Assembly (NCBI GenBank): GCA_963579735.1
Contig: CAUZIB010000014.1
Span: forward strand, 1,552-65,551
DNA from: Vicinamibacteria bacterium
Lineage (GTDB): Bacteria; Acidobacteriota; Vicinamibacteria; Vicinamibacterales; UBA8438
Length of the DNA: 64,000 bases
Direction of reading: 5' to 3'
Position 1 is the stretch's first letter. Each line of letters opens with the position of its first letter. The notes under the pieces were generated by a model. It ran no database searches, was not told where the DNA came from, and saw only the letters and a list, made by a program, of their open reading frames with translations. This document shows positions 6,392-42,464 of the stretch, in pieces. Both the position numbers and the translations under genes were made by a program.

Positions 6392-6704
6392 GCTGTCACC
6401 ACAAGGACTCGTGGGGTGTCGCCGAGAAACGTCAAGTATTGCTCCGGGCTGCGACGCCGCGCCGGCCAGGCGCGATGACGCATGTTGGGGATATGTGAGC
6501 GAAGAGCAACGCCGTCGACGTGGTGTCCCGGCCGGAGCACGCTGAACGTATCTCTGCGACAGTCCACTCGGTCGCTACGACCAGTCTGAGTAGCAAGGTT
6601 GGCAGAACCCGGGCCCGCGTCACCATCGCAATCTGCTCTGTAGGAGAGACGCGCGGCAGCGAACGTCTCCCGAAACACGCTTCCCAGGCGTCGCCGATAG
6701 TCCA

Positions 6705-10745: not shown

Positions 10746-11061
10746 GACCGAACACGAGCCCAGCGTTTCTGAAGTTCGAGTCGCGGGAATCGGCTCCTCG
10801 CGCCCGATGTCATCGTTGCGCCTTCGTTGATACATGACCGCTATGCCTGCTTCCGCGAGCCTCGATCGTAAACACGATAGCCTCGAGCCATGCGATTCGG
10901 ACCGAGGAAACGCATACGTCCCCTGGCGAGCCTTCCGCTGGGCATCATCAGTCTCATCCTCCCCCACTTCGCAGATGCAACATCCCCTTGCGCGTGCTTT
11001 GCCAGACGTGCGCCCCCTCGCGACGTATCACAGGAACTGCTGAGACAGAGGACGGGAATTC

Positions 11062-12135
11062 GTGGCGAAGAAATCTGATCTGCTCAAGACACCGGTCGAG
11101 CCATTCGTCGTGGAGCCGGACCTGTCGGCCGACGAACTGCTGCGTCGGATGGAGCGCATCTCGTTCCAAGGACGAAATCTGGCGTCCGCTCGGCGCGTGT
11201 GGCAGCGGATGCTCGAGGACGATGTCTTGATTTTTCTTGGCGTGGCCGGCGCGCTTAGCGCGGGAGGGCTGCGGCTCGTTATTGCCCACCTCATTGCGAA
11301 CAGGTATGTCGACTGCGTTGTGTCGACCGGCGCCAACCTGTATCACGACCTTCACGAGACCAGGGGGCGACGCCATTTCCTTGGTTCGCACCGCGCCGAC
11401 GATGCCGAGCTTCAAGGGCATCACATCGACCGTGTCTACGACACGTTTGTCGATGAGGACGAATTTATCGAGAACGATGAGTGGATCGCCGCGTTTGCGC
11501 GGACGCTGGCCGGTAGACGCTATTCCAGCCGAGAGTTTCTCCACCAGTTGGGCGGTCATCTGTGGCGTGAAACACGGGCGGACGGCATCTTAACCGCGGC
11601 GTATCGCGCCAACGTTCCAATCTTTTGTCCCGCGATTGCCGATTCGTCAATCGGGATGGGGCTGTCGCAAGCGCGAATGCTCACTGCGGATGCCGGTCAG
11701 GTCGACGTGATTGCGGATATCGTCGAATCCGCGAACATCGTGATCCGGCGCCGCCACACCGCGTCCGTCGTGCTCGGCGGCGGCACCCCAAAGAACTTTA
11801 TCAACCAAGCGAGTGTGCAAGCCGATTATTACAGCCCGGGTATCGCCGGCCACCGGTACGCGTTGCAGATTGTTGCCGATGTTCCGCATTTTGGAGGGGC
11901 TTCAGGCTCGACGCTCGATGAGGCGCAGAGCTGGGGGAAGGTCGCCGCTGGTGCGGACCACGTCACCGTTCAGGCAGATGTCACGCTGGCCCTCCCACTC
12001 CTGGTGACCGGTCTTGCCACGAGCGCACGTAGCGCCCGGGAGCACCGCCAGCCGCCTCAGTTTGAGCTGAATCGCCCGGCGCTCGTCGTTGACGGCGTCG
12101 CGCTCCCGGCAACGGGCTACGACACTCGATCCTAG
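11062..12135 (+). CDS. Deoxyhypusine synthase family protein (DHS-like)
   Basis: 357 aa. LLKTPVEPF...FQGRNLASARRVWQRML...IFLGVAGALSAGGLR...VDCVVSTGANLYHDLHE is typical of bacterial DHS-like proteins. GTG start with GAGGA upstream. Confidence 0.85.
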   Translation: MAKKSDLLKTPVEPFVVEPDLSADELLRRMERISFQGRNLASARRVWQRMLEDDVLIFLGVAGALSAGGLRLVIAHLIANRYVDCVVSTGANLYHDLHETRGRRHFLGSHRADDAELQGHHIDRVYDTFVDEDEFIENDEWIAAFARTLAGRRYSSREFLHQLGGHLWRETRADGILTAAYRANVPIFCPAIADSSIGMGLSQARMLTADAGQVDVIADIVESANIVIRRRHTASVVLGGGTPKNFINQASVQADYYSPGIAGHRYALQIVADVPHFGGASGSTLDEAQSWGKVAAGADHVTVQADVTLALPLLVTGLATSARSAREHRQPPQFELNRPALVVDGVALPATGYDTRS

Positions 12136-12345
12136 TGTCCCGGGTCAGTGATTCGTTACATAAGTCGCTGGCGGGGCATCCCGTCTGCCAGAGTTGTTCG
12201 TCGCTTAGAGACCGCTTTGTATGCGCACGTGGAGGCCTGGCCAGCCGGGCCTGCGCTCGGACCATGCATCCCATTCAGCTGTTACAGGCCACTTGTGGGC
12301 TGGCGGACAGACGTCCTGCCGATTGGTCACAGACGTGACAGCTAG
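12132..12345. repeat. Imperfect inverted-repeat intergenic element, copy B
   Basis: Fills the whole gap between the TAG stops of the DHS-like gene and aguA. Positions 12137-12186 match 24190-24239 at 39/50 ungapped positions (hand count). Contains the hairpin CTGGC-N14-GCCAG. Confidence 0.45.
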
Positions 12346-13412
12346 GCATCGGGTTCCTGCTGCGTCAAGCAGTGGATCGTCCCCAGCCCCAGCACAAGAT
12401 CGACGGCGTGGATACCGATGACCTCGCGAGTCGTGAAGACCCTGGCCAATCGGGCGAGGGCGATTCGATCAGCGGGATCGTTGAAGGTTGGCACGAGCAC
12501 GACCCGGTTCGCGATGTAAAAGTTTGTGTAACTGGCCGGGAGTCGCTGCTGCTCGAAGTAGATCGGTCGCGGCATTGGCAGCGGGACGATCGTGAGCTTC
12601 GTACCATCCATTGCCGACATCTTCGCGAGCTTGTTCCGATTGTCTCGCAACGCGGTGTAGTTTTCGTCGGTGGGATCGGTTTCGACCGCCGCGACGACGG
12701 TCGAGGGGGCCACAAACCGCGCGATGTCGTCGACGTGTCCATGCGTATCGTCACCGATAATGCCTCGACCTAGCCACAGCACACGTTTCACACCGAGTGC
12801 CCCCGAGATTACGGTCTCGATGTCGGCCCGCGACACGCCAGGATTGCGCGCCTGGACGCTGCTGAGGAGACACTCTTCCGTGGTGAGGAGGAGCCCGTCA
12901 CCATTAACATCAATGCTGCCTCCCTCGAGCACGAACTGCCCGTGGGGACCGCTGATTTCAAAACGCGGCACATCAAGGCGTTCGGATATGTGTCGAGGGA
13001 GAGCGTTGTCGCGGCGCCAGGCGCGGTATCGCGCCCACCCGTTGAAACGCCAGTCAGTCGCTGCGACACGGTCGCGACGACCCGTCGCCCGGGTGACAAA
13101 AATCGGTCCGCTGTCGCGAATCCACGAGCGGTCGGTCGGGATCCGATGCCACTCGATCTGCGAATCATCGACGTCGCTTTGTGTGAGGCGTCGACGAGCC
13201 CGCCGCTCGACCCGGGCGTCGTGAACGATCAATGCGACGCGCTCGCTGGTGATCAAGTGGCGGATGATCTCTGTGTAGCACCACTCGACGGCGGTTGTCT
13301 TGACTTCAAAATCGGCGCGATTATGCGGCCACACCAGCCATGTCGCCCGATGAGGCTCCCACTCGGCGGGCATGCGATACCCACGGGCGACTCGACCATC
13401 AGACCGCGTCAT
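12342..13412 (-). CDS. aguA: Agmatine deiminase
   Basis: YRMPAEWEPHRATWLVWPH plus the C-terminal GTIHCLTQQ motif. Start placed at ATG 13412 to avoid overlap with aguB. Confidence 0.85.
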   Translation of the reverse strand: MTRSDGRVARGYRMPAEWEPHRATWLVWPHNRADFEVKTTAVEWCYTEIIRHLITSERVALIVHDARVERRARRRLTQSDVDDSQIEWHRIPTDRSWIRDSGPIFVTRATGRRDRVAATDWRFNGWARYRAWRRDNALPRHISERLDVPRFEISGPHGQFVLEGGSIDVNGDGLLLTTEECLLSSVQARNPGVSRADIETVISGALGVKRVLWLGRGIIGDDTHGHVDDIARFVAPSTVVAAVETDPTDENYTALRDNRNKLAKMSAMDGTKLTIVPLPMPRPIYFEQQRLPASYTNFYIANRVVLVPTFNDPADRIALARLARVFTTREVIGIHAVDLVLGLGTIHCLTQQEPDA

Positions 13413-13437
13413 CTGGACCTGCCGTGAAGTGTCGTGC

Positions 13438-14361
13438 TCACGGCCAGGGTGTGTCGAGAAACCTCCGATCGATTCCCGCATAGCTATCGATACGGCGGTC
13501 TCGCAGAAATGGCCACCCACGCCGTTGATTCTCCAAGACCGTCCGATCGCACGTTGCAATCAGGACGTCTCCTGCCGCTGCCGAGGCCTCCACCATCACC
13601 CGTCCCAGTGGATCACACACAAATGAGCGACCCCAGAAGTCCACCCCTGCCGCCGCGGGCCCTTCGTGCCCGACGCGATTTGCCGCGGCCACGTAGACCC
13701 CGTTGGCGATGGCGTGGCTGCGCTGAATCGTTTGCCAGGCATCAAGCTGCGCGAGACCCTCGTCGGGGTTGTTCTTGTCGGCGGCCAGCCACCCGATGGC
13801 AGTCGGATAGAAGACCACCTCCGCGCCCCTCAACGCCGTGAGGCGGGCGGCCTCGGGATACCACTGGTCCCAGCAGATCAAGACCCCAATGCGCGCAAAC
13901 CGGGTCTCGAACGCCTGAAATCCGAGGTCGCCGGGTGTGAAATAGAACTTCTCATAGAAATGCGGATCATCGGGAATGTGCATCTTGCGATACATCCCCA
14001 ATCGCTCCCCCGTAGCATCGAACACCACCGCGGAGTTGTGAAAAAGTCCCGGGGCGCGACGCTCAAAAATAGGGACGACGAGCGCGATGCCGAGCTCTTT
14101 CGCCAAGGCAGACGCGGCTGTTGTTGACCTTCCGGGGACTGGCTCGGCGAGATCGAATAGCGCCGAATCTTCACGTTGGCAGAAGTATTCGGATGTGAAT
14201 AGCTCCTGCAGACACACGATCTGGGCCCCCCGTGACGCCGCCTGACGCACGCCGTCAAACGCGGTCGCGAGGTTGTGTTCCCGATCGGCGACACATGCGG
14301 TCTGGACCAGACCGATCGAGAACGTTTCCTTTTTGCCCGAGACCGATGTCTCGGAAGCCAT
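13438..14361 (-). CDS. aguB: N-carbamoylputrescine amidase (CN hydrolase)
   Basis: FSIGLVQTAC...IVCLQELFTSEYFCQ and ICWDQWYPE (catalytic Cys). Its start overlaps the upstream stop (TGATG). Confidence 0.85.
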   Translation of the reverse strand: MASETSVSGKKETFSIGLVQTACVADREHNLATAFDGVRQAASRGAQIVCLQELFTSEYFCQREDSALFDLAEPVPGRSTTAASALAKELGIALVVPIFERRAPGLFHNSAVVFDATGERLGMYRKMHIPDDPHFYEKFYFTPGDLGFQAFETRFARIGVLICWDQWYPEAARLTALRGAEVVFYPTAIGWLAADKNNPDEGLAQLDAWQTIQRSHAIANGVYVAAANRVGHEGPAAAGVDFWGRSFVCDPLGRVMVEASAAAGDVLIATCDRTVLENQRRGWPFLRDRRIDSYAGIDRRFLDTPWP

Positions 14362-17210: not shown

Positions 17211-17287
17211 TGGCGCGCGTGGCAGGATTCGAACCTGCGGCCTACGGCTTAGGAGGCCGTCGCTCTATCCAGCTGAGCTACACGCGC
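17211..17287 (-). tRNA. tRNA-Arg (anticodon CCT)
   Basis: Cloverleaf read by hand: acceptor GCGCGTG/CACGCGC, D arm GCTC/GAGC, anticodon arm ACGGC-CTCCTAA-GCCGT, T arm GCAGG-TTCGAAT-CCTGC, encoded CCA. Confidence 0.95.
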
Positions 17288-22319: not shown

Positions 22320-22487
22320 CGGCTGGTTGGCGTCATCCAGACACGTCGGCCGTCTGCAATCGGAATTCTTGAGCGCAGCGTCTCGTTGACTCGCTCACTG
22401 TAACAGTTGCCTCGGCACCGAGATCCGAGGCGCGACGAGGGCGCACAATGGGTATGTCCGACAGAGGAGCAGCGCCGTCGCGGGACA

Positions 22488-24146
22488 CTAATCCGGCAGT
22501 CCGAACACGAAGAGATTGTTACCGGCGGCTGCCGCGACGAACTGGTGTCCGTCGACCGCAAATGACATCGGGCCGTTCGCGATCATCCCCCCCAGCGTTC
22601 TGCGCCACAGCAGCTCACCGCTGGTGGCGTCCAGTGCGTGGAAATAGCCTTCTCGATTGCCGGTAAAGAGGAGGTCGGTCGCGGTCGTGAGAATCCCACT
22701 GCTCGTGACGTCCGTCATGTTAAACCGCCATCGCTCCCCACCAGTCGCCGGGTCGATCGCGACAACCGCACCGGATCCGGCCTCCTCGGTCCAATCGTTG
22801 ATGGGACCGCGTCCCAGCGGGGGAATGACCGGTGCGCCTGGTAGTGGGTTCCCTGGGCGTCCCCCGAGAAAGGCCCGTCCTGGCTGGTACTCCGATTCGT
22901 CGGCAACAAAGATGGAGCTATACCGTTCCCACGCAGAGAGATAAAACAGCTGGGTGCTCGGGCTATAAGACGGAGAGTACCAATTCGTGCCGCCGGCTGG
23001 ACCGGGAAACGTCGGCTCCCCTTCTGGTTGCGGTGTCTCCACTGGTCGACCGTTGTCGTCCAAACTCTCGGCCCAGTTCACAAAAATATACGGGTCGCCG
23101 GAGACGAACTGGCCGTTCTGGCGGTCCAGCACGTAGAAGAACCCATTCCGGTTGCCCCACAACATCAGCTTGACAGTCTGTCCATCCTGCCCAGGGTAAT
23201 CGACCAGAACCTGGACCTGGACGGAGTCATAGTCGTAGTCGTCATTGGGTGTGAACTGGAAATACCAGGCGAGCTCGCCGGTGTCAGCGTCGAGCGCGAC
23301 CACCGAGTCAGAATACAAGTTGTCACCGGGCCGTTGCGCAGGATTCCAGTCGGGGCCCGGGTTCCCAATGCCCCAGTATGTCAAGTTGAGGTCCGGGTCA
23401 TAGGACCCGGTCATCCAGACCGACGCGCCACCGTGCATCCAGGCGTCACCGTCACCCCATGTGGCGTGGCCAGGCTCTCCGGGACCAGGAATAGTGTAGA
23501 AGCGCCACGCCTCGTCGCCGGTATCGGCGTCGTAGGCCGCGATGAACCCGCGCACTCCATACTCACCGCCGGCCACGCCGATGATGACTTTGTCCTTGAT
23601 AATGAGCGGAGCCAGCGTCATGGCATAACCGAGCCTCGCGTCCGCTATCTGCTTGGCCCAACGCGGTTGTCCCGTCGTGGCGTCGATCGCAATGAGCTTG
23701 GCGTCGATCGTGGCCATGAACAGCGTAGTGCCCAAGATCCCCAGCCCGCGGTTGACCCGTCCGCAGCACGGCCGACTCTGGTTAGACGGCGTGTATTCGT
23801 AGCGCCAAAAGACGCGCCCGAGTTTGGCGTCGAGGGCGACGACCGTATTGGGGGCTTCGGTCAGGTACATGATCCCGTCCACAACGAGCGGACTGGTCTG
23901 AAACGCTTGCAGCGATTGCGCCTGAAAGACCCACTTCAGCTCCAGTTGGCCGACATTGGTCGGGTGGATATCGGCCAGCGTGGTGTGGCGTTGACTGTCA
24001 TAGCCGCCAGAGTAGGTCAGCCAGTTGTGTGGCTCGCTCCCGGCGTTGAGAATTCGGTCAAAGGTGACTCCGCTCTCCTGCGCAACGGCCGTCGCGGAGA
24101 TGAGGAGGACGGCGCAGCCAAGGAGTGCGGCAGATCTTGGCATCAT
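22488..24146 (-). CDS. PQQ-dependent alcohol dehydrogenase (methanol/ethanol family), exported
   Basis: Signal peptide MMPRSAALLGCAVLLISATAVAQE. NWLTYSGGYDSQRHTTL. Vicinal Cys pair (PCCG). Propeller W-motifs. DYD at residues 305-307. GGGAGGA RBS 8 nt upstream. Confidence 0.9.
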   Translation of the reverse strand: MMPRSAALLGCAVLLISATAVAQESGVTFDRILNAGSEPHNWLTYSGGYDSQRHTTLADIHPTNVGQLELKWVFQAQSLQAFQTSPLVVDGIMYLTEAPNTVVALDAKLGRVFWRYEYTPSNQSRPCCGRVNRGLGILGTTLFMATIDAKLIAIDATTGQPRWAKQIADARLGYAMTLAPLIIKDKVIIGVAGGEYGVRGFIAAYDADTGDEAWRFYTIPGPGEPGHATWGDGDAWMHGGASVWMTGSYDPDLNLTYWGIGNPGPDWNPAQRPGDNLYSDSVVALDADTGELAWYFQFTPNDDYDYDSVQVQVLVDYPGQDGQTVKLMLWGNRNGFFYVLDRQNGQFVSGDPYIFVNWAESLDDNGRPVETPQPEGEPTFPGPAGGTNWYSPSYSPSTQLFYLSAWERYSSIFVADESEYQPGRAFLGGRPGNPLPGAPVIPPLGRGPINDWTEEAGSGAVVAIDPATGGERWRFNMTDVTSSGILTTATDLLFTGNREGYFHALDATSGELLWRRTLGGMIANGPMSFAVDGHQFVAAAAGNNLFVFGLPD

Positions 24147-24184
24147 CAGTCTCGTCCTCCCTAATTTTCTGTTGCGACGGCCCG

Positions 24185-24349
24185 CTACCGTCCTGCGTCA
24201 CCGATTCCTTACACAAGTCCCGGGCGGCATATCCCGTCTCGCGGCCTGACGCCTCCGTCGAGTATGGCCAATATTCTGCCTCATCGCGCCTTGTCAGCGG
24301 GGTGCCGCGCGCCGCGACTTGTGGAGGGAGTCACTGACACGGACACTAG
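24185..24349. repeat. Imperfect inverted-repeat intergenic element, copy A (about 43-bp terminal inverted repeats)
   Basis: The left end (24185-24227) and the reverse complement of the right end (24349-24307) align at about 31/43 positions. The right end aligns with the left end of copy B (12132-) at about 33/43. Lies between the ygiQ stop and the PQQ-ADH RBS. Confidence 0.45.
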
Positions 24350-26367
24350 ATACCAGCACCCTTCGGCCGATAGCCTGGGCGTGGCGCGTGGCGGGATTGC
24401 TTCTTTGGCCGCTTGAACTGGTCGACGACGGGAACCGTGTGTACATGGTCACCCGCGAATTGCCGGTTCGCGCTCTCTCGGCGGCGCGCGATCGCCTCTC
24501 GTGGCGGCGCGGACGGAATCAGCGCGTCACAACCGTTGCCGATGAGGTCGCCGCGACCGGCCTGGAGCAGAGCTCGCCTGACCTCTACATAGTTCTCCGG
24601 CTTGAAGAACTGCATGAGCGCCCGTTGCAACTTCCGGTCGCGGAGGTGTTTGGCGATAAAGACGGGCTTCTTTGTGAACGGGTCGATACCCGTGTGATAC
24701 ATCGCGGTCGCCACGTCGAACGGAGCGGGGATAAAGTCCTGGACTTGGTCCGGACGATAGCCGCCGCGCTTGAGAAACACCGCCAGGTCAATCATCGCCG
24801 CCAGATCGCTTCCGGGGTGACTCGCGATGAAATAGGGGACGATGTATTGCTGTTTGCCGGCCTGTCGAGATTCGTCCTCGAACGATGCTGCGAATTTCTC
24901 GAAGTCGTCACCCGAGGGTTTCCGCATGCGGGTGAGCACGGTTGGATCCACGTGTTCGGGCGCAACCTTGAGGTGTCCTCCGACGTGATGACGGGTGAGC
25001 TCGCGTATATAGCGTGGGGACCGTCGAGCGAGGTCCATACGGAGGCCGCTGGCGACGAGCACTTTCTTGACGCCCGGGGTCCGGCGTGCCTGCTTCATCA
25101 CATCGATGAGCGGCTCGTGATTGGTGTCGAGGAGCTTGCAGATCGTGGGATGCACGCAGGATTGGCGACGACAGATGGCCTCGACCTCCGGCTTCGAGCA
25201 CTTCATCTCGTACATGTTGGCGGTGGGGCCACCGATATCGCTGACTGTTCCCTTGAACTCGGGGTCAGTCGCCAATTCGCGCACTTCGTCGAGAATCGAC
25301 TGTTTGCTCCGCGATTGAATAATGCGACCCTGATGGGTCGTGATCGAGCAGAAGGTGCACCCGCCAAAACAACCCCGCATGATCGTCACGGAGTCCTTGA
25401 TCATCTCGAAGGCGGGAATCGGCTCGGTATACGCGGGATGTGGTCGCCGCGTGTAGGGTAAGCCGTAGACCATATCCATCGCCGGTTGAGAGATCGGCAA
25501 CGCCGGGCGGTTGCAGACAATGGCCTGGCGGTCGTGGGTTTGGATCAGTCGGCGCGCGTTATAGGGGTTGGTTTCATCATGAATCAACCGTGTCGCCTCG
25601 GCGAACGCGAGCTTGTCGGCTCGAACGGTCTCGAACGAGGGCAACGTCAACACGTCGACCGGGCGGGGCTCGGACGCGCCAAGCGCAAAGGCGACCCCGC
25701 GCATGTCGCGCAAGTCGCGGACGGACTCCCCGGCGGCGAGACGACGAGCAATCTCGACGATGCCTTCCTCGCCCATGCCGTAGACAAGGAGATCGGCTTT
25801 GCAATCCAAAAGAATCGAGCGTCGAACGGTGTCGCTCCAGTAGTCGTAGTGCGCCAGCCGGCGAAGCGAGGCCTCGACACCGCCCGCGATGACCGGGACG
25901 TTCTTATACGCCTGCCGAGCGCGTTGACAATACGCGAGCGTCGCTCGGTCGGGTCGCATACCGATGCGCCCGCCGGGCGAGTACGCGTCGTCGTTGCGCA
26001 CCTTTCGGTTGGCGGTGTAGTGGTTGATCATCGAGTCCATGTTGCCGGCGCTCACGGCAAAAAAAAGCCGCGGCTTGCCAAAGCGCTGCCAATCGGCGAC
26101 GGACTGCCAGTTTGGCTGGGACACGATTCCGACCCGGAACCCGGCCGCCACGAGTATCCGCCCAAGGATCGCCATCGCGAAACTGGGGTGATCGATATAG
26201 GCATCGCCGGTGACAAAGACAACGTCGATTTCGTCCCAGCCACGCTGCCGCATTTCCGCCGCGGACAGTGGGAGAGGTGTCCGGGGAGCGTCGGGTGGCG
26301 GCGCCGGCAACATGGCGAGCACATTCCCGGTCGAGCCCGGGGCGTCAAGGACGCGATGACGAGGCAT
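24346..26367 (-). CDS. ygiQ: YgiQ-family radical SAM protein (UPF0313)
   Basis: [30 protein letters not shown]. Radical-SAM cluster [13 protein letters not shown]. Start uncertain (26367, 26313 or 26451). Confidence 0.85.
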
Positions 26368-26456
26368 GGTCTTTTTTGCGGCCACAGCCGCAGAAGCCAC
26401 GAGACATTCTATCGGTGTACGCCACGAATAGTCGGGTGACACACTCGCCAAGATGG

Positions 26457-26966
26457 TCAGCGCTGCTGAAACTGGACCGGGTGAGTGGTGATCCGAATTC
26501 GGGTCTCCATATACGTGACCGACTCCCCATCGATCACGCGAAACCAGTGCGGCGTGCCCGGTTGCAGCACCAGAACGTCCCCGGCGCTCACAGGACGGGC
26601 CAAGCCGCCGCTGATCCCGTGCTCGCTTCTCATAATGTCCGGATTGTTCGACTCGGCCAGCGGTGATACCAGGAGGCCACCGGTCACGAGTGTCCCGCTC
26701 CCCTCTAGAATCCGGTAGATCTCGATGCTGAATGGATGGAGCACCGCATATTGCGGGACTGAGCTACTGCGACGCCGGACAGAGACCCCGGGGGAGACCC
26801 GAACCGCCCAGCCGCCGGCCGACGCCGATGATGCTGCGGCCGTCTCCAGCGATTCGGTGATGTCAGTGCTACTCCTATAAATACCAGGAGGGGCACCTGG
26901 CTCCTGGGCAAGAACCGGAAGGCCCACCGTCATGACGGTCGAGAGTGCGACGAACGACGTTCTCAT
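26457..26966 (-). CDS. Secreted cupin-domain protein
   Basis: Signal [22 protein letters not shown]. Cupin-like [14 protein letters not shown]. Confidence 0.55.
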
Positions 26967-31848: not shown

Positions 31849-31925
<77 letters not shown>

Positions 31926-40256: not shown

Positions 40257-40465
40257 GGTAAGTCTCCATGCCCAGGGTCTCGGTCCTGCCCTGAACGGGA
40301 TCCGGAGCGCGGCACCCGGCTGGCAAGGCGCGACGAGACACCTTTTTGAACGTATGTGACCACGGAGCAACACGGACAGACCGGCTGCCGCGCTCGAACA
40401 CGCTCGGGGGAAGACAGAGACGCGGCCGGAGCTCTCCCGAGAAAGGACGTCGCGGCGGTCCGAGA

Positions 40466-41926
40466 TCAACCCATCTTTTGCATCGATGCGAGAAAGTCCG
40501 CGTTCGATTTCGTCTTGCCCATCTTGTCGAGCAACAGCTCCATCGCCTCGACTGGCGACAGCGGATTCAGCACCTTTCTGAGCACCCACACCCGGTTCAG
40601 GTCGTCCCCGCTCAAAAGCAGCTCCTCTTTGCGCGTGCCGCTCTTCTGAATATCGATCGCCGGGAACACCCGTTTGTCCACCAGCTTTCGCTCGAGGTGG
40701 ATCTCCATGTTGCCGGTCCCCTTGAACTCCTCGAAAATGACGTCGTCCATCCTCGACCCGGTGTCGACCAGGGCGGTCGCCATGATCGTCAATGACCCGC
40801 CTTCCTCGATGTTCCGGGCGGCGCCAAAGAATCGTTTTGGTTTCTGCAACGCGTTCGAATCGAGCCCCCCGGAGAGCACTTTACCAGACGGCGGAATTAC
40901 CGTGTTGTAGGCCCGGGCCAGCCGCGTTACCGAGTCGAGCAAGATGACGACATCTTTCCGGTGCTCGACGAGACGCTTCGCCTTTTCGACGACCATCTCC
41001 GCGACTTGCACGTGTCGCTGCGCCGGCTCATCAAACGTCGAAGAGATAACCTCTCCATCGACCGACCGTTGCATGTCAGTGACTTCCTCCGGTCGCTCAT
41101 CGATAAGCAGCACGATGAGATAGACCTCGGGATGGTTCTTGACAATCGACTGCGCGATGTTCTGCAGCAACATCGTCTTGCCTGTCCGTGGCGCCGCGAC
41201 AATCAACCCGCGTTGCCCCTTGCCGATGGGAGTCATCAGATCCATGACCCTGGCGGACAAATTTGGGCCTGTGCTCTCGAGCGTAATGCGCTCTTGTGGA
41301 TAGAGCGGCGTTAGGTTCTCGAAGAAGATCTTGTCACGACCCTGCTCGGGCGCCTCGAAGTTGACGGCCTCGACTTTGATCAGCGCGAAATAGCGTTCCC
41401 CCTCTTTCGGTGGACGGATTTGGCCCGACACCGTATCCCCCGTCTGCAAATCAAACTTACGGATTTGCGACGGTGAGACGTAAATGTCGTCAGGCCCCGG
41501 CAGATAGTTGTAGTCAGGGGCTCGTAGGAAACCAAATCCGTCCGGCAGTACCTCGAGAACGCCCTCGGAGAAGATAAACCCGCTTTGTTCCGTTTGCGCT
41601 TTGAGGATCTGAAAGATCAGCTCCTGCTGGCGCATGCCGCCCGCTCCCGGCACGGCCAAATCTTTCGCGACCTGGGTCAACTTTGCGATGCTCATCTCCT
41701 TGAGTTCGCTGATGTTGAGTCCTGAGTCGCCTCGGCGACCACCCTGTCGGCCGCCTGACTTTTGCTGTGTTGACTTTGGGGCCGGTGACTTCGGTGGCGG
41801 TGACTTCGGTGGCGATGGCTTTGGGGGCTCTTTAACGACCACGGGCGCCGTCGCAGTGGCAGTGGTGGCTGGAGCTTCGGCGCGGGTCGCAGTTGTCCGT
41901 GGCGGACGTTTCTGGTTGCTTGGCAT
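40466..41926 (-). CDS. rho: Transcription termination factor Rho with Pro/Lys/Ser-rich N-terminal extension
   Basis: [21 protein letters not shown] (N-terminal helix bundle). Walker [24 protein letters not shown]. Start placed at ATG 41926. Confidence 0.95.
41769..41813. repeat. 15-nt tandem repeat inside the rho N-terminal extension
   Basis: GGTGACTTCGGTGGC occurs as two perfect copies (41784-41813), preceded by an 11/15 copy. Encodes [14 protein letters not shown] on the minus strand. Confidence 0.6.
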
Positions 41927-42107
41927 AAGGGATGAGTTGTGAAAGCCTTGCGGCGAGAATACGCGGGAACGTCGGCCCGCTGAATGCGTGAATAGAGCGA
42001 TACGAAACGTTTTTTTGGGGAACTTGTTTGGTGCTGTCGAGCTATGAACCTTCGAGGGTTTCAGTTCACGGCTAACAATTTGAGTATATGACTGCCGAAT
42101 CCGTGTG

Positions 42108-42464
42108 TCAACCGCTAGCGAGCGCCACCAAACTGCACGCCACGATGGGGTCGATACCGAGCGCACGGGCGCGCTGGACCACCGCCGGCGTGTCTGTGCC
42201 GGGATTCAACCACACTTCGCGGATTCCTCGCTTCGCCACATCGTCGAGAACGGTCAGACTTACGGTCGGGGTTACATATAAGGAGACCACGTCCACGTCG
42301 TCCGGTATATCGACGATCGAGGGATACACTCGCAGCCCCTCGATTTCCGTCTCGTGAGGATTGACGGGTATTACGCGATACCCTTCCGCGACATACCCGC
42401 GTACCGCTTTGTTTCCGAATTTACGCCGGTCGTTCGACGCGCCGATTACGGCAACCGTTTTCAT
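42108..42464 (-). CDS. CoA-binding domain protein (YccU-like)
   Basis: [22 protein letters not shown]...GYRVIPVNP. Start placed at ATG 42464. Confidence 0.75.

Follow-up and report, generated by a model that had tools for sequence, protein, structure and literature searches.

The spacer between the ygiQ and PQQ-ADH genes on contig CAUZIB010000014.1 of a Vicinamibacteria bacterium (assembly GCA_963579735.1) raises the question of what the element of about 165 nt at 24185-24349 is, how it came to lie there and what it would do to the genes on either side. Positions are those of the 64,000-nt stretch of this contig that was analysed (the window). The initial annotation of the window had described the element as a pair of inverted ends with the architecture of a miniature inverted-repeat transposable element (MITE) and a second copy starting at 12132. 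Given the evidence set out below, this element, here termed copy A, is very probably an old, fixed and part-decayed member of a non-autonomous, palindromic, MITE-like family of about 166 nt that targets CTAG. The family was previously uncatalogued and is of a familiar kind of element, akin to Correia and ERIC. As part of the same reading, it is likely that the family inserts at CTAG, or more loosely at YTAR, and ends with this tetranucleotide on both sides.

The element is one long imperfect hairpin, with variable complementary arms, a conserved inner stem and an asymmetric, purine-rich centre containing a co-varying hairpin. In the ygiQ/PQQ-ADH spacer of 199 nt, which contains copy A, the parts are disposed as follows, in the direction of the two genes:

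24346-26451, minus strand: ygiQ open reading frame (ORF), whose stop reads CTA on the plus strand and TAG on the minus strand
24185-24349, minus strand: copy A, a degraded 165-nt family member, its sense strand being the ygiQ and PQQ-ADH strand
24346-24349: proximal CTAG, the tip or target of copy A, containing the ygiQ TAG stop; intact copies are CTAG-bounded at both ends
24299-24349, minus strand: 5' arm of copy A (the right end of the initial annotation), from the family alignment and consensus fold
24276-24298, minus strand: 5' half of the purine-rich centre, GCTGACAAGGCGCGATGAGGCAG, the best-conserved block of the family
24261-24275, minus strand: central small hairpin, degraded in copy A (AATAT-TGGCC-ATACT); the stem co-varies in other copies
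24238-24260, minus strand: 3' half of the conserved centre, degraded in copy A; the family consensus is TGAnCGAGGAGCAACGCC
24185-24237, minus strand: 3' arm of copy A (the left end of the initial annotation), from the family alignment and consensus fold
24185-24188: distal degenerate flank tetranucleotide, CTAC on the plus strand and GTAG on the minus strand
24147-24184, minus strand: spacer of 38 nt from copy A to the PQQ-ADH start codon, outside the hairpin
22488-24146, minus strand: PQQ-ADH ORF, with its start codon at 24146

The coordinates and anatomy first given for the element hold, as does the position of its ends: the right arm begins at the ygiQ stop, which lies within the CTAG at 24346-24349, and the left arm ends 38 nt short of the PQQ-ADH start codon, with the Shine-Dalgarno sequence of that gene (GGGAGGA, 24155-24161) inside the intervening spacer. 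The terminal inverted repeats of about 43 bp proposed initially are real as a repeat but too short as a description, since complementarity runs almost to the centre and the whole element is an imperfect palindrome. The gap-free core of the repeat spans 27 nt at 78% complementarity (24197-24223 against 24312-24338). It had been allowed that the alignment of the arms might not be significant against shuffled sequence; gapped local alignment of the 60-nt ends gives a score of 20, against 8.0 +/- 1.6 for mononucleotide shuffles, none of which (0/5000) reaches that score, and 3 of 5000 genomic controls of the same geometry do so. The arm motif GTCAGTGAYTCNNTNCACAAGTC occurs three times against an expectation of 0.00. 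Full-length alignment of copy A to positions 1-166 of the covariance model R1 gives 124.9 bits (E 8e-26). Around copy A, minus-strand RNA folds into a single long imperfect hairpin of -90.8 kcal/mol over 221 nt (z = -2.08; window G+C 62%), and 44 Watson-Crick and 6 G·U pairs make up 50 of the 63 consensus pairs, compared with 61-62 in intact copies.

The similarity noted at the outset between the right end and the start of copy B at 12132 extends to both ends of copy A (55 nt, 76%, E 7e-8; 53 nt, 79%, E 5e-5), and the number of copies was underestimated, for the window has five rather than two. A hidden Markov model (HMM) built from seven non-window copies provides a non-circular membership test for the window copies and finds A at E 4e-15, C at 1e-14, B at 4e-14, D at 1e-12 and E at 2e-7, with no further match in the window below E 0.09; an HMM of the shared core also gives exactly five copies in the 64 kb. 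Beside copy A these, and one doubtful trace, are:

12132-12345, minus strand: copy B, with the deoxyhypusine synthase gene (11062-12135, plus strand) on one side and the convergent agmatine deiminase gene (12342-13559, minus strand) on the other
40273-40425, plus strand: copy C, flanked by rho (40466-42166, minus strand) and a CDGSH gene, antisense to both
6408-6570, plus strand: copy D, between DUF465 and phosphatidylserine decarboxylase genes, antisense to both
22379-22490, plus strand: copy E, truncated, in the PQQ-ADH/HAD spacer, with the PQQ-ADH TAG stop in its 3' tip
10930-11050, minus strand: a highly degraded candidate for a sixth copy, between the deoxyhypusine synthase and MutS genes

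The five copies occupy unrelated spacers in both orientations. In the covariance model, copies C and D score 66.5 bits (E 1e-12) and 84.5 bits (E 1e-16), their neighbours being named by Pfam. The interior of copy A at 24277-24314, which overlaps the 5' half of its centre, is 87% identical over 38 nt to copy C at 40303-40340, and weaker matches lie at 6451-6482 and 22428-22480. Copy E is found by nhmmer at E 2e-8 to 2e-7, the covariance model matching its centre at 22426-22477; its 3' tip reads CGGGACACTAA on the plus strand and TTAGTGTCCCG on the minus strand, and it is missing from a relative (L014; related loci are numbered with the prefix L), where the interval measures about 13 nt compared with about 172 nt in the window. 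The possible sixth copy rests on weak matches in the orthologous loci L134 (E 0.012) and L137 (E 0.003), and no significant match was found in the window sequence itself.

Members of the family were also found far outside the window. A metagenome search with the pattern CGGCACCN{8,9}AGGCGCGAYGAG was too permissive, returning at least 117 loci with six true members among the matches listed; additional members were taken from loci of relatives. The intact copies in L121, L034, L075 and L050, from soil and marine metagenomes, are 165-166 nt long and non-coding, with stop codons in all frames. They are flanked by CTAG on both sides in L121 and L034, by TTAG and CTAG in L050 and by CTAG and CCAG in L075, and in L034 the arms are perfectly complementary over 20 nt. 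The best full-length homologues in unrelated soil and marine contigs reach 189 bits; covariance-model scores are 96 bits for the L137 member B2, described below, and 95 bits for the L015 member. A protein encoded next to the soil copy L034 clusters at >=90% identity with a Vicinamibacterales protein, and the family lives in uncultured soil and marine bacteria, probably Acidobacteriota. Neither the window element nor the intact copies match any family of Rfam 15 at the gathering score, the only sub-threshold matches being to generic long-hairpin models of plant microRNA precursors, and a literature search with the consensus strings returned unrelated primers only. The only Rfam matches in the window are two tRNA genes, at 17214-17287 and 31852-31925, both on the minus strand.

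Comparison of these copies identified a single rod of 63 pairs as the RNAalifold consensus, with 47 of the 63 pairs changed on both sides among 12 independent copies. Canonical pairs fill 87.5% of cells in 11 copies, as against 64.5 +/- 1.3% when partners are shuffled between sequences, a control in which 0 of 2000 replicates reach the observed value, and 32-39% when partners are slid by 1-3 columns. Column identity among the 11 copies is 88% in the 5' half of the centre, 81% in its 3' half, 66% in the tips and 55% in the arms. The asymmetric centre consists of GGCAAGGCGCGACGAG-n-GAG, a hairpin of 5-6 bp and then TGA-n-CGAGGAGCAACGCC, and the stem of this hairpin occurs in the variants AATAC/GTATT, CAAAT/ATTTG, CAGAT/ATCTG and GATAC/GTATC. 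Oppositions of G·U(T) outnumber those of A·C by 53 to 20 in the 12 copies and by 17 to 2 in the independent intact copies, counts which come from few copies and from an alignment fitted to a covariance model that slightly favours G·U over A·C. In 10 of the 12 copies the sense fold is more stable than the antisense fold by 5-18 kcal/mol. The G·U asymmetry hints at a single-stranded form of the element, whether RNA or single-stranded DNA (ssDNA).

Evidence that the family is mobile comes from the copy B locus. Contig L137 is collinear with the window and 97.7-97.9% identical to it. The window reads GATGC-CTAG-[B]-CTAG, in which the first CTAG, at 12342-12345, stands alone, and L137 reads CTAG-[157-nt member B2]-CTAG-[B]-CTAG; the only difference between the two at this point is the B2 element plus one CTAG. 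B2 has perfect inverted ends of 21 nt and the family centre, and the CTAG beside copy B in the window is the empty site of its insertion. At the same point L134, which is 97-98.2% identical to the window, has a different member, about 88% identical to that of L137 and with other tips. In more distant relatives the same gene pair shows, in L133 (about 81% identical), a tip-like remnant and CTAG at two stop codons that lie 26 nt from each other, and in L138 (about 70% identical) a short copy in the opposite orientation. The copy B spacer is an insertion hot spot, and the family has moved in recent strain history by precise gain or loss. Dispersed, non-coding copies with inverted arms, CTAG on each side and precise presence or absence between strains bear out the MITE-like architecture first proposed for copy A. 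A further intact copy, in L050, lies between two convergent genes, at a place where L147, whose flanks are 89% identical, keeps 12 nt resembling tip remnants. The left arm of this L050 copy (TGCAGCGTCCGGGTCGTTAGGAC, L050 1640-1700) is similar to the 3' end of the coding sequence of the adjacent 174-aa gene as found in L147 (10490-10540); the corresponding gene end in L050 itself is less similar to that arm.

The tips of the family overlap stop codons in copy A, at both ends of copy B, in copy E, at both ends of the L050 copy and at one end of the L121 copy; in copy B, both terminal CTAGs contain stop codons. CTAG occurs 50 times in the window, against 82.7 +/- 9 expected from dinucleotide-preserving shuffles, and a crude gene map places about 14 of these sites at the ends of ORFs. 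Since TAG can be read from CTAG on either strand, and since the tetranucleotide is depleted in this genome, many of the surviving target sites are stop codons, and it is for this reason that copy A starts at the ygiQ stop, copy B lies between two stops and copy E abuts the PQQ-ADH stop. Likewise, the ending of three window genes in TAG followed by TGTCC is explained by a repeat that targets or carries CTAG and not by a regulatory signal. Targets of this kind have precedents: IS630 favours the TA of CTAG (Tenzen & Ohtsubo 1991, cited in PMC2170065), the IS5-derived MITEPsy1 duplicates CTAG or YTAA (PMC3189936), and an IS5-family IS lies in the tip CTAG of the L075 copy.

Copy A itself is present at the same place and with identical spacing in every recovered contig of this population. 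In strains 96-98.5% identical over the region it has four substitutions, about the genomic rate, and no presence/absence polymorphism of copy A was found among the related contigs and strains examined. The distal GTAG is also present in strains L144 and L145, where the adjacent preceding bases of the 3' arm are nearer the family consensus. Given that 50 of 63 pairs remain compared with 61-62 in intact copies, that the distal CTAG is now GTAG and that the copy is present everywhere, copy A is an old, fixed and decaying copy. One candidate for its empty site was rejected: in L014, whose ygiQ protein is 91% identical, the CTAG at the ygiQ stop is followed by CGGG as in the window past copy A; a deletion runs there from just past the ygiQ stop into PQQ-ADH and leaves only an agreement of 4 nt (TAG followed by CGGG). 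Homologues of PQQ-ADH were tried as synteny anchors and are useless for such a search, because the closest of them lie in cytochrome c-PQQ operons, in unrelated contexts.

An autonomous partner was sought in several ways. The statement in the initial annotation that the window lacks a transposase agrees with tblastn searches of it using nine transposase and integrase types from related loci, which gave no match. The related full-length insertion sequence (IS) that it had suggested looking for did not appear, there being no element with matching ends in the window, in about 1.1 Mb of fetched loci, in plasmids (PLSDB) or in viral contigs (IMG/VR). An arm-motif scan of a genome collection gave five scattered matches, against about 17 by a rough chance estimate. 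A 31-nt, 90% match to the copy B arm at L007 597-627, within a cysteine-rich HNH-like ORF of a Gemmatimonadaceae metagenome-assembled genome, runs 8 nt past the search pattern and has no family centre nearby; it was set aside as unexplained or due to chance.

Two classes of DDE transposase were compared with the flanks. For IS630, the flanks fit the form C-TA...TA-G, the sole DDE_3 fragment encountered has a different end and the tips differ among subfamilies. This fragment lies in L134 11073-11887, orthologous to window 12342-12345, where a mosaic of 812 bp is inserted at CTAG. In it, 144 codons from the C-terminal end of an IS630-type DDE_3 transposase are joined with a frame shift to about 35 IS110-like N-terminal codons that have a Shine-Dalgarno sequence of their own; next comes a family member, with no CTAG in between. 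The end of the DDE_3 fragment reads TA-GTGTAGTGG, which agrees in its first bases with TA-GTGTCCCGG, the tip of the main subfamily, and is otherwise different. For IS5, flanks of CTAG, TTAG and CTAA are compatible. An IS5-family IS of about 840 bp, with a DUF4096 ORF, lies at L075 173-1015, exactly in the tip CTAG of an intact family copy and with CTAG on both sides; its inverted ends, GAACCTATCTCAAAAAT, are unrelated to those of the family. IS5-family ends usually start with GG or GA. Y1 transposases also occur near copy B in related strains. The one at L134 2586-2930 was considered as a RAYT and proved to be an ordinary IS200 fragment. In one strain, an IS200-type element with a Y1 transposase and hairpin ends of its own, CTACCGCCTAAAGGCGGTAG, lies in the deoxyhypusine synthase-MutS spacer (L137 5424-6047, window about 11026-11030). 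No family copies stand beside the Y1_Tnp genes of these two loci.

Several points weigh against the reading of copy A as a member of a mobile, MITE-like family. The failure to find an element with matching ends in the collections named above is one. The comparison with relatives lacking the insertion that had been proposed at the outset succeeds for the family, through the difference between L137 and the window at copy B, and fails for copy A, for which there is no clean empty site, the deletion in L014 spanning it. Since CTAG is palindromic, the flanks would look alike as a target duplication, as part of the inverted repeat or as a cleavage tag, and duplications of 0, 2 or 4 bp are indistinguishable. 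The tips vary between subfamilies (TGTCCCGG, CAGCCCGTGG, CCATCCTGG and TGCAGCG) and the centre is conserved, the opposite of what MITEs usually show; the tips are what a DDE transposase should recognise. The comparison involves only about 12 independent copies, in an alignment fitted to the model, and all effects on ygiQ and PQQ-ADH are inferred. The conserved centre, the variable tips and the strand asymmetry leave room for a single-strand mechanism or an RNA function.

With these reservations, the family would be mobilised in trans by an enzyme encoded elsewhere. The simplest candidates would be DDE transposases, either of the IS630 type, with a TA duplication within CTAG, or of the IS5 type, with a 4-bp YTAR duplication; a structure-specific single-strand mechanism would be the alternative mobiliser. 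As for expression, the reasoning of the initial annotation that a PQQ-ADH transcript would either start inside copy A or read through it is logically sound as a deduction from the sequence. In a transcript reading through from ygiQ, the sense strand of copy A would fold into a hairpin of about -80 kcal/mol that stops 38 nt short of the PQQ-ADH start codon and leaves the Shine-Dalgarno sequence free; judging from Correia and ERIC elements (PMC10969869), such a hairpin could affect the processing or stability of the transcript or cause partial termination. Copy A may also supply a weak outward promoter, for which the candidate is:

24270-24297, minus strand: sigma-70-like match CTGACA-16-AATATT, 9 of 12 positions, directed towards PQQ-ADH, a consensus match only

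One such match was found in copy A against 0.1 expected in shuffles; it is probably fortuitous, given that its '-10' is half of the co-varying hairpin. That the conserved centre is itself a promoter was considered and rejected, since its '-10' lies in a co-varying stem and its 'spacer' is the most conserved part, a pattern of conservation that promoter function cannot account for.

One rival, that copy A is an inverted repeat due to chance or is left over from a segmental duplication involving locus B alone, is practically excluded. The arms are only 75-79% similar within the window and the z-score of the fold is modest (-2.08), but chance is rejected by the shuffle and genomic-control tests, and the initial annotation's own proviso, that only two syntenic loci might exist, gives way to five window copies in unrelated loci and both orientations and to full-length homologues of up to 189 bits in unrelated soil and marine contigs; this rival is already refuted. 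It is very improbable that the family derives from the non-coding end of an IS110/IS1111 element, for example as an orphan bridge-RNA or seekRNA module. The idea arises from the L134 member, which lies about 90 nt upstream of the Shine-Dalgarno sequence and ATG of the IS110-like ORF (about 35 codons; DEDD_Tnp_IS110, E 0.022), and from the activity of IS110 elements in these strains. Nevertheless, this is a single mosaic example with a weak Pfam match, the better-folding strand of the family is antisense to the ORF, and three intact IS110 elements (L135, L144 and L145) have no family module. The conserved loops have no complement to CTAG and the flanks beyond CTAG differ at every site, so that no RNA-guided target is apparent; a bridge-RNA reading was rejected for want of any guide-target logic. 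Insertion of IS1111-type elements into palindromic repeats is known from QMITE2 (PMC5896051) and would account more simply for the adjacency.

The remaining rivals start from the conserved centre. If the family were primarily a functional structured RNA, either a cis-acting hairpin of 3' untranslated regions (UTRs) and intercistronic spacers or a small RNA (sRNA), its dispersal would be secondary, and the purine-rich internal loops and G-rich hairpin loop would bind protein or RNA. Conservation of the centre from soil to marine copies, co-variation of the stems, conservation of several G·U pairs and the greater stability of the sense fold are all consistent with this, as is the position of the well-preserved copies between co-directional genes (L034, L121, L015 and L075), all of which are sense and downstream of a gene, like copy A; moreover, MITEs are known sources of sRNAs and RNase targets (PMC5896051, PMC10969869). 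Such a primary RNA role is nevertheless doubtful, given that copies C, D and E, three of the five in the window, run antisense to the genes on both sides, that no conserved promoter or terminator bounds the element, that the neighbouring genes are functionally unrelated and that Rfam offers only the sub-threshold microRNA-precursor models; the precise CTAG-to-CTAG indel requires a mechanism of DNA mobility in any case. A mechanism of that kind could also be a single-stranded one, as in REPIN/RAYT or IS200/IS605 systems, with the hairpin on one DNA strand and its CTAG recognised and cut by a structure-specific enzyme, such as a HUH tyrosine transposase, and the conserved centre, not the tips, serving as the recognition module. 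Arms and tips that vary between subfamilies yet stay complementary around a conserved centre would fit, as would the G·U(T) excess and the more stable sense fold; the same tetranucleotide on both sides fits insertion 3' of the target with no need for a duplication, and IS200-type elements are active in this population. Still, the tag is CTAG and not the GTAG or CGTC of REP families (PMC3733652), the only Y1 genes seen have unrelated hairpin ends of their own and no flanking family members, the G·T asymmetry could equally reflect RNA and the covariance-model alignment itself slightly favours G·U over A·C, which together make this account unlikely. A bolder combination of the two would see in the family a mobile structured module whose asymmetric centre, with its purine-rich internal loops and its hairpin with a G-rich loop, is the functional determinant on a sequence-free paired rod bounded by CTAG, acting as ssDNA for a structure-specific enzyme or as RNA with a cellular function; as a whole this is improbable, and if true it would make the family a hairpin element of a new class, with hosts ranging from soil to deep-sea bacteria.

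The context of copy A has features of its own. The PQQ-ADH gene has here no cytochrome c gene immediately before it, unlike its closest homologues (L012 and L013). In the relative L014 it is reduced to its last 377 nt (12044-12420), and in strains 96-98.5% identical two different IS110-family elements interrupt it at two positions (L144 8168-11452; L145 8168-11164). Loss of the gene appears to be under way in this lineage. Elsewhere, an ISL3-family transposase insertion lies between the 183-aa and cupin genes in L145 and L146 (3813-5423, window about 26879-26881) and is lacking in the window, and near copy E, in a further rearrangement between strains, a 238-aa minus-strand gene in L006, L142 and L143, contigs of the same population, replaces the 353-aa gene of the window downstream of the 84-aa gene (about 21240). 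Named homologues of ygiQ at 78-79% identity are planctomycetal, and those of PQQ-ADH (73%) and agmatine deiminase (64-65%) include Acidobacteria; the window sequence derives from marine metagenome assemblies, and of the candidate host phyla Acidobacteriota is the more likely. The locus thus combines a strong predicted hairpin with a gene directly downstream that lacks its usual cytochrome c partner and is inactivated by ISs in sister strains. More widely, an uncatalogued repeat family in uncultured, probably acidobacterial, lineages can confound the prediction of RNA motifs and gene boundaries and is usable as a strain marker, and its conserved centre within freely varying paired arms makes it a tractable case for "MITEs" that are recognised by structure or act as RNA.

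Comparison with known systems places the family among several kinds of small element. Its flanks fit the form C-TA-[element]-TA-G expected of IS630/Tc1-mariner MITEs, given the preference of IS630 cited above (PMC2170065), and an IS630-type DDE_3 fragment lies at the same CTAG hot spot in L134; on the other hand, no IS630 transposase gene bounded by family arms was found in the loci searched, the tips differ between subfamilies and a duplication is inseparable from the palindromic tip. MITEPsy1 of Pseudomonas syringae, an IS5-family MITE with a 4-bp CTAG or YTAA duplication (PMC3189936), is likewise small and non-coding with inverted ends, and the flanks of the present family are CTAG or YTAR (TTAG in L050, CTAA in copy E), but the ends of the only IS5-family IS encountered, that of L075 (GAACCTATCTCAAAAAT), are unrelated. 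With REP/REPIN-RAYT systems the family shares an extragenic position, often downstream of genes, long hairpins kept up by compensatory substitutions, a conserved tetranucleotide at the hairpin base and long persistence in lineages (PMC3733652). It differs in its tag, CTAG in place of GTAG or CGTC, in having 166 nt with a non-palindromic centre in place of two REPs of 20-40 nt, and in that no RAYT gene flanked by copies was found among the Y1_Tnp genes looked at in L134 and L137.

QMITE2 is similar in that it measures 150-190 bp, occupies intergenic regions and 3' UTRs and has other ISs inserted at its edge or within it (PMC5896051), much as IS5, IS630 and IS110-like pieces adjoin copies of the present family; QMITE2, however, has direct repeats of 7-11 nt and a GTAG REP and shows no sequence relationship. 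The closest parallel is offered by Correia/NEMIS elements of Neisseria and ERIC/YPAL elements of enterobacteria. The family has no sequence similarity to these, its flank is CTAG/YTAR where theirs is plain TA, its centre is better conserved than its tips and its hosts are uncultured soil and marine bacteria, probably Acidobacteriota. Nevertheless, all are non-coding elements of 100-200 bp that form imperfect palindromes over nearly their whole length and insert at a TA-containing target in intergenic regions or 3' UTRs. Correia and ERIC elements are co-transcribed as long RNA hairpins that are targets of RNase III and RNase E, and some of them carry outward promoters (PMC10969869, PMC3733652).

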